Source of the DNA: Fonticula-like sp. SCN 57-25 | Taxonomy: Eukaryota | Direction of reading: 5' to 3' | Length of the DNA stretch: 48,450 bases | Assembly (NCBI GenBank): GCA_001724245.1 | Contig: MEDX01000679.1 | Location: forward strand, 1-48,450 | Shown: one piece after another, positions 1-5,881 of the stretch | How the letters are laid out: every line of letters starts with the position of its first letter | Position numbering within the stretch: position 1 is the first letter of the stretch | The notes under the pieces: generated by a model | Seen by the model: the letters and a program-made list of their open reading frames with translations, nothing else | What the model was told of the DNA's origin: nothing | Databases searched by the model: none | Position numbers and translations under genes: made by a program

Positions 1-22
1 CACGGGGCAACAGCATAATCAA
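1..22 (+). repeat. Left terminal inverted repeat (22 bp, starts CACGG)
   Basis: Perfect inverted match to 5860-5881. A 5'-CA start is typical of P-superfamily termini. Confidence 0.92.
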
Positions 23-26
23 GCGC

Positions 27-37
27 CCACGTGGATG
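27..37 (+). repeat. Left subterminal inverted repeat ccacgtggatg (candidate transposase-binding site)
   Basis: Reverse complement catccacgtgg occurs at 5833-5843. Confidence 0.7.
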
Positions 38-341
38 AGGGATATTTGGCTGATTTGGCGCCACTTTACCCACATATGTGAGCGCGTTGCCTTGAAGAGT
101 AATCATCTGGCTCTTTGCGGTAATCATTTTTTTTTTGTCGGTTGTCTATCCGCCGAATCTTTTTTTTTCCAGATCGCGTTCCGATTGCCCGAATTCTTCG
201 GATCCTCGAAGTGGTCATCACCGACATCGATTGCTTGATTCAGTTCCCTCCCTTTTGCTCGTCTACAGTACGCTTTTGCGCTCGCGGACGCCCAACACCT
301 CTTGCTAACACCTCTCGCTTGCAGGGCGCAGTAGGATTATC

Positions 342-2570
342 ATGGAAAAGAAGCAAGGTGGCAAGGTGGAGGTCGTCGTGCCGGGTGTCATCGATGAGGC
401 GCGTGGAGATGGCGTTCCGATCGGGCGAGTCCTGTGCTGGACTTACAAGAAGCGCCGCGCGACCAATTCGATCACCCTTGACGATAGCGGCTCAGTAGTG
501 TACAATATTGAGTACAAGTCAAGGAACGGTAAGAAGCAGTGGCTCGTATCTGGCCGCACGGTGACAAGAGCGGCCGATCTAATCCGCGGGCGCAAGCAAG
601 GGGGCCGTGGACCGGCTGGTTGGGTTGTAGGCCGCCTTCCAGGCAAGCATTTGTTTGGCCTTCACGACGACGGGCCTTCTACAACCGAATCCACCGGCGG
701 GTCCGAGCCCGCTGGCCTGGAGGAACCCCTGACGCTTGTACCCGACCCGCCTAATGTAGCTGAAGACAGCGACGACGAGAGCGGATGGGAAGAGGAAGAA
801 GAAGAAATGCCCGAAAATGAACATTCAACGGGGCCCGTGCCCCTCACACGCGCGAGCAATTTCTTGCTTCCACACGTGTTTGGGCTAAAGGACAATGATA
901 TCATTGACCACCTACCGCACCCGACAAAAGATTGTGCGGCGTCAGTTCTGCACCCCGCGAAACTCGAGCGGGTACAATGGAAGCCAATGACGAGAGCGAT
1001 GGCGGAGGAGGTAGCGGTCTTCTCAAAGTCGAACCGCATTAAGAAGAGTAGCAAAAAGAGCGCAGCGGGGCAAGCTGTTGCATCTCGACTGACTGGCCAG
1101 TTCGGCTGCAGCGTTACCGTTTCAGCGTGGCGAAACCAGCTCACCAAGATTTCAACAAAGGGCGGATTGGTGTCAGAGTTGCTGGCCAAAACACGTCATG
1201 AGCGCGACGCGCCGTGCGAAGGCGACCCACACGCACTAAACGCCATTGACGCGCTCCTCGTGTGCAATCACCAGCAACGTGAGGATGTGTTCCGCTATGT
1301 CGCGGCACGCTGCTTGGGAAGCGACCCATCGCGCGATTCCTTCTATCGCGCGATATTGCTTCTGCCTGGCGCATTGCGGCATGGTGAGACCGTCACCGGC
1401 GATGTCTTTGCAACGACAACCGGCAGTATGGTCACCGATTTTTTGTCTTTGCTTGCATTCGGCCAGATGCCAAAGCGCAGCATCTTTGCGCACACGATTT
1501 TGGCCGGCTGCCAACTAGGGTTGCAACCTCCCGCGCAGGGCGTGTTCCCAGAGTTTGTAAAGTCGTTCTATTCTTCAGTTTTCTTTTATGCCCGGGGCAA
1601 CGGGTACAACGCGATGCGCGGGCACAGCGGGTTGCGCCTGGCGTCCATGAACGTTCCCGGCATGCCGGCGGAATCGACGATTCGGGCATACGTAAAACGC
1701 CAGTTGAAGACAGTGCCAGCCATGGCAGAGAGGGGCATTGATATGACGGCAGTGGATGATGCGGTCAAGGCCGCGCCTGCCGACACCCTTCTGTGCGCGC
1801 AGCTCGATGGGCGCACGATTGACCACCGCGGCGGTGGCGATGTCGACCATGGAAGTACGATTAGAACCTCCTTTATCAATCTATACCGCCGGCATCAGCA
1901 TTGACTCACATCTCATTGGCGGGGTAGATGCTCAAGTAGGGAAAAGCTCCCGGAAAAGCCATTTGGAGCGAGTGGCGGCTGCGACTGCAGCACAGAACGC
2001 CGATGATCCCGTCGCGTTAAGGCAGCTGGCAGTTTCTGCCCTGAGCGATGTGCAAGGGGACATGGCCGCTTTTCGTGGTGACCTTAATAAGCGCCTATCT
2101 AAACTGGTAGCCAAGCAGGAGCGCTCCGCCGACGTCGCAAGGGCCCGCAAGTTGGAGGAGGTCCGTGAAATGCTTCGACAACTTGACGACGTTGCGGGTC
2201 GTGTTCCCTTAGTAACCCACGGGGTGGCGTACTTGCCCCGTACAATCGTCCGCCTTAACCCTGGTAGGTACTTTAAAAGGCAAACAGCGAAAGCCCTGGA
2301 GGACAGCGATCACTACCTTTCGAGGTGCGTCGAAAAGGGCATGTGGGGATAGATAAGGGGAGGTGATAGAGGGAGAGAGAGGAAAGGGAAAGGGAAGGGG
2401 AAAGAATGATATGGTGGTATCAAAGTCATCGTATAGGCAGGGAGATGCCTGGGAATCGAACCCAGATGCAATGCACATAACGAAACGTGCTGCAAAACCC
2501 ATCGTCTCTTCAAGAAGCCAACACGGTGATTTGAAGCGAAAGATACACACATACACACATGCACATACAC

Positions 2571-2614
<44 letters not shown>

Positions 2615-5161
2615 ATAGCCCTATGCAGTATAACTGAGATTAGGAATTCTAACGCGTACGCTTCTGTGAATAGATCCGGGAAAAATATCTTGTCCTTAGC
2701 GGGTTTACTCGGTGCGGGCGCACAGCTGTTTAAGGAGAACGAGCGGCGCAAAGCAATCAGCTACCCGCTGTATTTCGCAATGTGGAGCGTACCCGAGCCG
2801 GAGCTGAGACTGTTTAAAGGCGCAGCGCAAGGCATACCACTCTACACCGGCGATAGTCTACATTTTAGCAAGGGCGAAATAAACGCACGAGTAGGGGACA
2901 AGGCGTGGAACTTCACGATCCCCTATTTTAAAAGCGGAGATAAGATCTTTGACGTCGTGACCGGCGAAGCCGACATTGAGTCGTGTGCGCGCGCCTGCCT
3001 TATTGCGGCGGTCGAGCAGAGGGAAGTCGTACACATCGCGCAATTCGTCGCCGCGTCTAGCACGTTCGTCATTTACGCGAGGACAATATCGGCCGAATTG
3101 AGACAAGCTGCGTTGGATATGCTGAGCCGCATCGAGGACGAAAAAGCCGTCATGAAAAGAGTGCACGAACTACGTGCTCTTAATCGAACCCGCATCACGC
3201 CCTTGTTCTGCATGTCCGCGCCATCAACTTCGCCGCAATGGAGCGACACCGCGCTCGTGGGCAAGGCCCTGTCGGAGCTGCTCATTGCCGCGGACGACCT
3301 GCTGCGAGTGACGCCGACGGAGATGGTAGTGGTGATGGTCAGCGACACGGCGCGCGAGTCCACGTCGGAGGTGGGGCTCATGCTGACGGCCAAGGGCAGA
3401 GGAGGCGACTCCATTCGTCAGGCGTTCAAGCTTGTGTCGGACCGCGTGCTCGCTACCGCCGGGGACTCGCGTGACCACCTCACTGGCGACCACTCGGCTG
3501 TTGCCGAGGTCACTTGGCCAGACTCCTGCTCGCTGCCCCCCTTTCTCTGCGAAGCCCCGTCGCCGCCCCATGTTAAAGTCCACCCGCTCGCCCACATGGC
3601 TGTGGATGGGGAACACCATGAGCTCCTTCTCCGTGGACGTCGTCAGTCGGAAAACGCGGATGTTGAGGATGTGCCCCAGATGTTGTCGGAGGCCATCCGC
3701 ATGGTGCGCAAGGAGGTCTCAAATATTCTTCATGATATCGCACCGGTGCGCCAGTGGACCGTCGACGTAGTGGCACAGGCGGCGGAGAGCGTTGGTGGTG
3801 CAGAATGGTCGGCGCTGGTCCAGGCTGCAGCCGAGGATGTGGAGATGACCGCTGATGTTCCTGCGCACGAGCCGACATTATCAAGGAAGAGGAAAAAGGG
3901 TGAGAAGCGGGCAAGTAAGAAAAAACAGAAAACAAGTTGCGACATTGATGGAGAGTTGGGTGAGATAGAGAAGGGGATACGGGAAGAGGAGGGCGATGAA
4001 GAGGACAAGGACAAGGACAAGGACAAGGACAAGGACAAGGACAAGGACAAGGACAAGGACAAGGACAAGGAGTTAAAGAGAGCGCAACTTACGGCGGCGC
4101 TCGACAAGTTTCGAGAACTGGTGTTCGCCTTGCGTGCGCAAGAACTAGAGTGGAAGTGCCAGGGCGTTCGTTTCTCGTTCGCCCAGCATTTTTACGTCCC
4201 ATGCCCGCGAGGTGGCCGCGTCGCGTGGACTTCGATTGATGCCGGCCATCTGCTGAAGCGCCTTCGGTCAGCCACGGGATGCGGACACGCTGCTGCCAAG
4301 GAAGTCCCGCGCCTCCTTCCAAAGGACATTCTGGAAGCGGCGGCCGCCGACGACAAGGCGCTCGCCGCGATCCTGCGCGGGGCTGACCCGCAGTCGGTGC
4401 GATTCGCCATTTACCTCTTCTCGGAGAAGGTGGAGGCGACCATCCGAGCTGCCAACGCAGCCGCCGCCGACATTATCGCCCGCTGCCGCCGGTTTTGGAT
4501 GGCGCACGACCAGCGCGGCCTGACCGCCGAAACGCGACGCAGCCATCTGCTCGCCATGCGCTCGTGGCTGCTGGAAGGCGTCGACTTGCGCCAGTGGTTG
4601 AAGGTGGGGGTGCCTAGCTACGTGAAGGGCATTCCCATCGACACCTTCGAGGCCTTGGTGGCGTCTGCCGAAGCGGTCGCCGCTTTGCAGGCGTTTTCCC
4701 GTGCGTTTAACGCGAAATTTCTACGTGGAATGCTAACAAAAAATGACGCTATAGCATTTTTGCATACCCGCGCGCTTGGCTCGGATAATGTTGAGTGCCT
4801 ATTTTCCATCGTGCAGTCCCACGTGGGTACTCCGACCGCATCGAGCGCCCTGCAGTTGTTCGGCAAGCTGGTGCTGGAAAGGCGGAAGGCGGCAGATCGT
4901 CTGCTGCCGTGGCGTTATAAGAGGAGAAAGGCGGCGAAGTACCTTCATCGTCGCGATGAGGTACAACACCGCCGGTCGTTCAACACGCCATCCTCCGCCG
5001 CCAATACCACCGATACCACCATTCGAGCGCAACGGCCGCAGAGGGGATCCCTCCTCAAGGCCTTCATGTCGGCGCCAGAAGCGCGGGCCGCCCAGCGCGG
5101 AGCGGAGGGCGACCTCATAACTCCTCGCCAGCACAACAAGAGGCGCGCCGCGCGTGTATAA
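342..5161 (+). CDS. Large P-element-like DDE transposase, ~1465 aa; predicted exons 342-1854, 1928-2324, 2674-5161
   Basis: Introns 1855-1927 (gtacga..gtag) and 2325-2673 (gtgcgt..ttctaac..aatag) join three ORF-track ORFs in frame. P-transposase-like motifs occur in the expected order: GYNAMR..MPAESTIRAYV (cf. AYxxLR..LPSxxTLxxW), AQLDG (D1), AVDGE (D2), DAGHLLKRLRS (DxxHLxKxxRN), DPQSVRFAIYLFSEKVE (cf. KMxVxxAxQLFSxxV), LHTRALGSDNVECLFSIVQSHVGTPT (cf. SQDxLExxFSxIR..PT). A 5'UTR intron is predicted at 268-324. Confidence 0.8.
2571..2613 (+). repeat. (ATAG)n microsatellite, ~10 units, inside transposase intron 2
   Basis: Seen directly; preceded by a CA-rich tract. Confidence 0.95.
4004..4069 (+). 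repeat. (GACAAG)11 coding microsatellite encoding (DK)11
   Basis: Perfect hexamer tandem, in frame within the transposase. Confidence 0.95.
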
Positions 5162-5229
5162 TATGTAAATGTTTTTCTGTATCATAGCTGCATACCTTGT
5201 GTACATTATTGTATAATTATCCTTGTAAA

Positions 5230-5772
5230 CTATGTATTAAAACCAACATGAAAGGGAATACAAGTGACCGAAAACTGGACCACAACGAGCTTAGTAAAAA
5301 TGCACCAAACCATCTCTAAACGTACCATAAATACTAATACAAAAGTCGTAGAAGAAGGTGAAAAGGGACGTGGGTACAAACGAAGAAGGCTCAACAGGAT
5401 GCGGTCATAGGATGCCATCCGCACGACAAAGGAGACACGGCAGCCCGCTTAACGTGCCCTGTGCGAGGAAAGGTGAGCAAACGCAGTGAAAACAGCAGCA
5501 TGTCGCACCGAGCAATTAAATAAAACATATCGCTCTCATAACATACCAAAAACAAAAAGTTTCCGGCACGTTGGCGTCGTCTGTACGCGATGGAGAGCAG
5601 CGTTCGGATCAACAACCAAGATTACCGAGCATATGAAATATTAAAAAACTCGAAATCCAACTGCCGCCCGCCCTTCCGACACTTGAAAATTTTCAATAAT
5701 ATGATACCTGTGTATCTTGTGAACATGTTAGTACCACTCAAGTGTCCCCCGGATGCGGTCACCGCGCACCAT
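5230..5772 (-). ncRNA. Putative spliced minus-strand transcript within the transposon right end (non-coding or micropeptide)
   Basis: Host-style intron signals on the minus strand at 5708-5769, 5459-5508 and 5275-5325, plus a weaker one at 5581-5625. No long ORF after splicing. Transcript boundaries are unknown. Confidence 0.35.
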
Positions 5773-5832
5773 CGAGAATCCCGCGCGGGCGTTCGCGCTT
5801 GCCGCGCTCTTTTCAGAGGGGCGTAACGATAC

Positions 5833-5843
5833 CATCCACGTGG
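5833..5843 (-). repeat. Right subterminal inverted repeat
   Basis: Inverted copy of 27-37. Confidence 0.7.
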
Positions 5844-5859
5844 TCCGATCCGTAATTTT

Positions 5860-5881
5860 TTGATTATGCTGTTGCCCCGTG
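5860..5881 (-). repeat. Right terminal inverted repeat
   Basis: ttgattatgctgttgccccgtg is the reverse complement of 1-22. Confidence 0.92.

Follow-up and report, generated by a model that had tools for sequence, protein, structure and literature searches.

The window analyzed here is the whole of contig C679 (48,450 nt) in G000, a 9.5-Mb, 749-contig assembly of an intron-rich microbial eukaryote. Bases 1-5881 of the window are a DNA transposon. The element is bounded by short terminal inverted repeats (TIRs) and carries a P-element-like transposase gene on the plus strand. Tail to tail with this gene, a second, inward-facing unit is well supported on the minus strand by sequence features, with predicted exons and introns that occupy the right end of the element. 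The coordinates of all features are collected in Table 1.

Table 1 Features of the transposon, with exons and introns of the minus-strand unit as predicted by the splice model
Feature	Position	Strand	Remarks
Left terminal inverted repeat	1..22	+	22 bp, first letters CAC; perfect inverted match to 5860-5881; same end on C35, C294
P-element-like transposase gene, spliced, exon structure partly resolved	342..5161	+	Atlas neighbours; D(2)H motif in 3' ORF
AT-rich gap between two stop codons, 68 nt	5162..5229	.	Palindromic TGTACA 5200-5205; likely shared 3'-end region
Exon 5	5230..5274	-	Ends in TAG 5232-5230
Intron 4, 51 nt	5275..5325	-	Score 13.6, 53rd percentile; in frame, stop-free
Exon 4	5326..5458	-	Single in-frame TAA 5451-5449; ATG 5418 of 45-aa ORF
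Intron 3, 50 nt, strongest	5459..5508	-	Score 15.1, 70th percentile
Exon 3	5509..5580	-	Hydrophobic strand and acidic pair aligning with NYN S-G-D-x-D region
Intron 2, 45 nt	5581..5625	-	Weak: score 6.3, 14th percentile; in frame; holds stop if retained
Exon 2	5626..5707	-	Splice model
Intron 1, 62 nt	5708..5769	-	Score 12.9, 44th percentile of host introns
Exon 1 / presumed inward promoter	5770..5859	-	ATG 5772-5770 immediately before intron 1
Right terminal inverted repeat	5860..5881	-	Same end, other flanks, on C66, C347, L065

The transposon and its transposase gene

Further copies of the left end were found in G000 on contigs C35 and C294, and of the right end on C66 and C347, each stopping after 98-99 nt. 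The flanks on C35 and C66 have exactly 8 bp in common, which is the target-site duplication (TSD) of one left/right pair. The remaining end flanks do not pair; thus, at least four insertions exist in G000, collapsed to one sequence. In a second assembly, a single metagenome match (L065) departs from the element in one substitution and in the length of a microsatellite, is identical to it over 3200-5881 and supplies another right flank. The collapsed insertions, together with this near-identical copy in a new right-hand setting, indicate that the transposon family has been recently mobile.

The 22-bp TIRs and the 8-bp TSD agree with the P superfamily, for which TIRs, a TSD of 7-8 bp, an intron-containing transposase and a D(2)H motif are described (PMC3698922). 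The feature and structure neighbours of the transposase in the Atlas are P/THAP9-like: the ten best named matches all share P/THAP9 families, with a top score of 0.90 and 164 shared features. PF21787 was found in six of the 18 transposase relatives scanned, in two of them above the cut-off. The motif alignment, in which D-A-G-H occurs in three of five rows and D-A-P-H in one, fits a P-type DDE transposase with a D(2)H motif. The transposase ORFs themselves gave no convincing Pfam match, no longer transposase homologs were found by word search, and no THAP domain was detected by Pfam at the N-terminus (342-1901). Since this N-terminal domain was not detected, we class the element as P-like only.

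Several other properties of the gene and its relatives were recorded. A very strong intron signal (268-324, plus strand, score 17.4) precedes the transposase ATG at 342 and thus falls in the 5' UTR, and an intron occupies the same position upstream of the transposase ATG in a second P-like element on C684 (score 12.9). This second family begins on C684 (L019) and continues onto the end of C15 (L228, last ~470 nt), where the C-terminus of its transposase is unlike that of homolog P0005. A 54-nt, in-frame and stop-free intron (4701-4754, plus strand, score 15.5) is contained in the long ORF of the transposase, shortly before the presumed catalytic Glu; at this place P0005 has a 15-residue gap and homolog P0002 diverges. 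Retention of this intron could give rise to an altered transposase. The joint of the two long transposase ORFs (2325-2760, plus strand) consists of purine-rich and GATA/CA microsatellite DNA without a well-scoring intron path, and its GATA run differs by 8 nt between the assemblies. A YqaJ-like exonuclease domain is fused to eight of the 18 scanned transposase relatives (P0008, P0026, P0029, P0033, P0035, P0041, P0043 and P0065); the literature searched held nothing on P elements with YqaJ in transposons.

Predicted introns and surroundings of the minus-strand unit

Splice signals were scored with a gene and splice model trained on 369 kb of G000, with the element left out. The host set that served as reference consists of 261 introns that are predicted rather than RNA-verified, with the donor GTRCGY, the branch site CTRAY, the acceptor YAG, a median length of 51 nt and a median score of 13.4. 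The initial annotation of this region had listed four GT..AG pairs on the minus strand, and all of them are present where it placed them, with lengths of 62, 45, 50 and 51 nt. Its further statement that they resemble host introns holds for three, which have the consensus and length of host-type U2 introns (44th-70th percentile), and the pair at 5625-5581, which it had itself called weaker, is weak (14th percentile). At intron 1, an alternative acceptor at 5716 (54 nt) scores 14.0, slightly above the 12.9 of the listed pair, and a weak alternative donor at 5762 scores 8.2.

A key question is whether such a cluster of signals could be a product of chance. On the minus strand there are three non-overlapping introns that score at least 12.5; the plus strand has none. 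The comparison with shuffled sequence, which the annotation had proposed as a check, came out in its favour: three introns at this level, a cut-off chosen once the scores were known, occurred in none of 3000 dinucleotide shuffles, and three introns scoring at least 10 occurred in 16 of 3000. In the host, windows of 551 nt with three hits numbered 12 among 477 in sense orientation, one among 477 in antisense orientation and one among 126 without annotation. The antisense and unannotated windows with three hits look like mis-called real genes; in one case the re-run model places a gene on the strand in question, and in the other the judgement was made by eye.

These figures bear on the reading that no transcript exists at all and that the signals are due to chance or are a side effect of subterminal motifs, for transposase binding or promoter function, in T-rich DNA. 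The failure of shuffled sequence to yield three strong introns, the gene-like appearance of both three-hit control windows and the restriction of the signals to one strand make this reading improbable. A degraded relative of the right end adds evidence on both sides. This TIR-less relic between two genes (L021, C63:15236-15407) is 79% identical to positions 5674-5856, and it keeps a branch-like TACTAAC, lacks the ATG and the intron-1 donor, and has a best intron model of only 8.0. The conservation of this block in a relic without the donor speaks for the absence of a transcript; the position of introns 3 and 4, which the block does not include, speaks against it. Absence of a transcript is also favoured by a pair of 8-mers enriched upstream of host genes that falls inside exon 2, by an intron threshold set with the scores already known, and by an intron-like signal with a score of 12.8 on the strand opposite the transposase (2888-2842). 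Beyond 5674, homology with the relic had a score that 48 of 2000 shuffles equalled, as did 19 of 268 host flanks.

Two other P-like families were also compared. The right end of a sister family (C87:20891-20989) is 88% identical to that of the element, and its body was not found in G000. On C15, where the 3' end of the second P-like family is presumed to lie, one inward intron signal (score 9.6) follows the stop codon; a score of this size is common by chance, as 1115 of 3000 shuffles of a 551-nt stretch contain at least one intron signal scoring at least 10.

The unit spans from just inside the right TIR to its TAG, and the TAA of the transposase gene lies 68 nt away, a distance similar to the shortest predicted convergent gaps in the host (65-140 nt). 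The hexamer TGTACA in this gap is the top hexamer of host 3' flanks (34 of 134 flanks). The T-over-A skew on the transcribed strand is 0.35 in the exons of the unit and 0.35 in host introns. Thus, the proposal of a second, convergent spliced unit is well supported from sequence as far as splice statistics, T-over-A skew and the 3' gap are concerned, and its transcription is what we infer from them. Since the predicted exons end 68 nt before the transposase stop, any overlap between the two RNAs would be limited to their 3' ends or to read-through.

In the presumed promoter region, CCACGTGG is present at 5836-5843, and another copy lies inside the left end. CACGTG occurs near both element ends, and ahead of host starts it is about twice as frequent as expected (32 of 138, vs 16); none of the most enriched host upstream 8-mers lies within 5773-5859. 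A right-end 14-mer containing CCACGTGG has 34 matches in G000 with at most one mismatch, vs 1 for the reversed control, and several of these matches are less than 100 nt from predicted starts, which suggests that the 14-mer is a candidate host promoter element. In viral contigs, the right-end motif had two matches, both unrelated.

Coding potential and likeness to NYN domains

With the introns removed, the three frames over exons 2-5 contain 4, 4 and 1 stops. The third of these, a frame of ~110 codons, is open except for the TAA in exon 4. The initial annotation had stated that splicing yields only short ORFs. Its 45-aa ORF was recovered as described, from ATG 5418 to the terminal TAG across intron 5325-5275, and the statement had overlooked this long frame. 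Taken alone, the nearly open frame is not significant, as 964 and 1126 of 5000 shuffles equal it. It has no ATG under the strongest splice path, and one could be supplied by the weak donor at 5762 or by ATG 5726 in a retained intron 1; the first ATG leads to ORFs of 5 or 25 codons. Reassignment of TAA was rejected because TAA is a normal stop among predicted host genes, which end in TGA 17, TAG 16 and TAA 14 times. Alternatively spliced ORFs of more than 200 aa, present among 28,535 ORF models, were likewise rejected because they require several very weak splice sites (scores 3-6).

The composition of the exons was also considered. Their GC content by codon position is flat (0.43/0.41/0.43), their coding score is negative, and their T fraction of 0.39 was reached by none of 627 host coding pieces; they look non-coding and have the composition of host introns and UTRs. 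Searches with the 45-aa ORF and the unspliced halves revealed no homolog in G000 and no match in Pfam (0 of 5 pieces), NCBIfam (0 of 2) or PDB (0 of 1). The search for a source gene in G000 returned self-matches only, and the unit had no match in Rfam.

These data bear directly on the possibility that the unit is a working gene for a small protein, i.e., an accessory factor comparable to MURB, encoded either by the ORF at ATG 5418, which has a hydrophobic C-terminus, or by the long frame, as a short product that starts through donor 5762 or from ATG 5726. The 45-aa ORF ends exactly where the 3' gap starts and spans a strong intron, the long frame has alternative starts, and the sequence identity over 3200-5881 in the second assembly is in keeping with a functional product. 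Against it stand several upstream ATGs, start contexts at only the 7th-34th percentile of host starts, the missing coding signature, the unspliced halves without a match in any of the collections searched, and changes in exon 2 of the C63 relic that alter residues. We consider such a gene unlikely, and the micropeptide suggested in the initial annotation gained nothing in its favour beyond the ORF itself.

Another important question is whether the long frame preserves traces of a known protein. By eye, we likened it to the C-terminal half of an NYN (PIN-like) domain. Against a profile of 53 sequences (52 bacterial NYN domains and the genome's own), the spliced frame scored 5.9 bits with a single-test E of 8e-4, while unspliced frames scored -1.6 bits or less. 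None of the 2000 residue shuffles and none of the 2000 DNA shuffles reached this score, and among 571 host protein pieces a single one did. HHalign of the spliced frame against NYN gave a probability of 57.8, with a score reached by none of 150 shuffles. In a phmmer search of 824 targets, 173 of them NYN, the top four were NYN domains, and the best match (E 0.16), ungapped over 54 residues, spans junctions 2 and 3 as well as the stop. The signal requires exactly the junction 5508-5459, with 5.7-6.6 bits when it is used vs -1.0 or less otherwise. The control profiles HAD, isochorismatase, PIN and Usp gave no match, since 78-775 of 2000 shuffles score as well, and these four were rejected as the ancestral family.

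On a 32-sequence bacterial profile, the true NYN gene of the genome reached 2.9 bits, vs 4.6 for the frame studied here. Several results count against an NYN ancestry. Six subsamples of 18 NYN sequences gave only 2.0-6.0 bits (0-7 of 2000 shuffles), the score on a profile of the C-terminal half only was equalled once among 2000 shuffles and once among 304 host pieces, and the scores of 120 close NYN relatives of one query were 0.7 or less. The only NYN-domain gene detected in the genome (L064, C741:2744-3124, minus strand) lies in a 640-codon open frame with a Gln-rich middle. It gave no alignment with the frame of the unit (HHalign 0.2), and no relatives of it were found that might serve as eukaryote-type seeds for a profile.

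By the defining tests, the unit is not a member of the NYN family. Its 5.9 bits on our own profile are far below the family cut-off of 24.2 bits for PF01936, and Pfam found no PF01936 match in the unspliced halves. The alignment covers only profile positions 107-136 of 152, so that the full catalytic acidic set, which includes the N-terminal D-x-x-N strand, is not present, and there is no room before the right TIR for the N-terminal half of the domain. The order and spacing of the C-terminal NYN motifs scored above all shuffles and above the four control families, in a match that is weak and to a family picked by eye. For the same reason, a single-test E of 8e-4 would be expected ~20 times over the 24,736 families of Pfam, and we treat NYN as a lead and not as an assignment. 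An NYN ancestry of the unit is possible on these alignments, at somewhat less than even odds. The suggestion of a decayed gene, one of the options in the initial annotation, has nevertheless gained some support from this weak signal across the junctions.

The same signal has to be weighed against a reading in which the unit was never coding and is a spliced antisense (lnc)RNA that selection maintains because it limits the transposase of its own element, either by transcriptional collision or by double-stranded RNA where the 3' ends overlap, with the NYN likeness a matter of chance. It would account for exons that match host introns and UTRs rather than coding DNA and for a first ATG followed by ORFs of 5 or 25 codons. 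It can also draw on the introns upstream of the transposase ATG in both P-like elements and on the inward signal at the presumed C15 3' end, the latter being of a strength that chance often reaches. In MuDR, antisense RNA is produced by termination failure between convergent genes; however, added antisense RNA failed to silence MuDR in maize (both PMC3440606). The exons of the unit do not overlap the transposase coding sequence, Rfam has no match, and a junction-dependent NYN signal is left unexplained. An RNA of this kind therefore appears to us a less probable origin, to be kept in mind as a serious alternative.

Possible origin of the unit and comparison with known systems

The reading that we prefer, with a probability of roughly 0.45, is that the unit is a decayed small passenger or accessory gene in a MuDR-like layout. 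Transcription by Pol II would start just inside the right TIR, the minus-strand RNA would be spliced at host-type introns, and its 3' end would be formed in the shared 68-nt gap. The ancestor may have been a small, fast-evolving passenger or accessory gene, possibly of NYN/LK-nuclease descent, which would have lost its N-terminal part and in-frame start and gained one nonsense codon, recently enough for the splice sites to survive. The present product would be a spliced RNA of ~0.45 kb with short ORFs only, no more than a non-coding or micropeptide RNA. If it has any effect, this would most likely be a mild damping of the transposase via overlapping 3' ends or read-through antisense RNA.

A bolder extension of this preferred reading is that the P-like lineage has, or recently had, its own accessory gene for a small RNA-binding or nuclease protein of the NYN/PIN fold, expressed from the right end, acting on the silencing RNAs of the element or the host and intact in sister elements. 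We regard this as a speculative and rather remote idea; if true, it would bring to the P superfamily a MuDR-like two-gene design with a nuclease-derived counter-silencing factor. An NYN ancestry, if true, would add a nuclease fold to the passenger and accessory genes of transposons, and a dead fragment would be an ordinary relic of a captured gene. With a built-in inward spliced unit, a recently mobile, compact P-like element would make self-regulation simple to test in a microbial eukaryote.

Compared with the NYN family (DUF88, LabA-like, Limkain-b1; PF01936), a group of predicted RNases of the PIN-like superfamily (PMC2848206), the long frame weakly resembles the C-terminal half in spacing and pattern, with a conserved Asp, a hydrophobic strand with an acidic pair, a helix, and then a Gly and a strand. 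It differs in lacking the N-terminal strand with the first catalytic Asp, in its altered acidic motif, in its internal stop and in having no in-frame start.

With the P superfamily (Drosophila P element, 1360, Galileo and THAP9-like elements), the transposon shares short TIRs, an 8-bp TSD, a spliced transposase with a D(2)H motif and P-type RNase H neighbours, and it differs in that no THAP domain was detected and the transposase is much larger. The canonical P element has one gene and is regulated by alternative splicing, and the available text of the two sources (PMC5443660, PMC3698922) mentions no second convergent unit. The literature searched, in which subscription journals are thinly covered, likewise holds no description of a P-like element with an NYN remnant or with a second spliced unit in convergent orientation, and the terms antisense, convergent and PIN are absent from the available text of a paper on accessory proteins in Arabidopsis (PMC13547354).

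The closest parallel to the layout is MuDR. Convergent second genes and antisense read-through are already known from Mutator elements: in MuDR, mudrA and mudrB are convergent and spliced, the element ends drive them, and the gap that separates them is a source of antisense RNA (PMC3440606); MURB is an accessory protein that binds the transposase (PMC12973397). Our element has the same tail-to-tail layout of two convergent units, its mudrB-like unit being a prediction. It differs from MuDR in its P-like transposase, in its TIRs of 22 bp instead of ~215 bp, and in a second unit of ~0.6 kb that lacks an intact long ORF. This unit has no homolog in G000, and its agreement with a MuDR-type second unit, which encodes a protein needed for transposition, lies in the layout. 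On this comparison, the minus-strand unit is best described as a real feature of the predicted gene structure, a variant of a known convergent design with a putative function.
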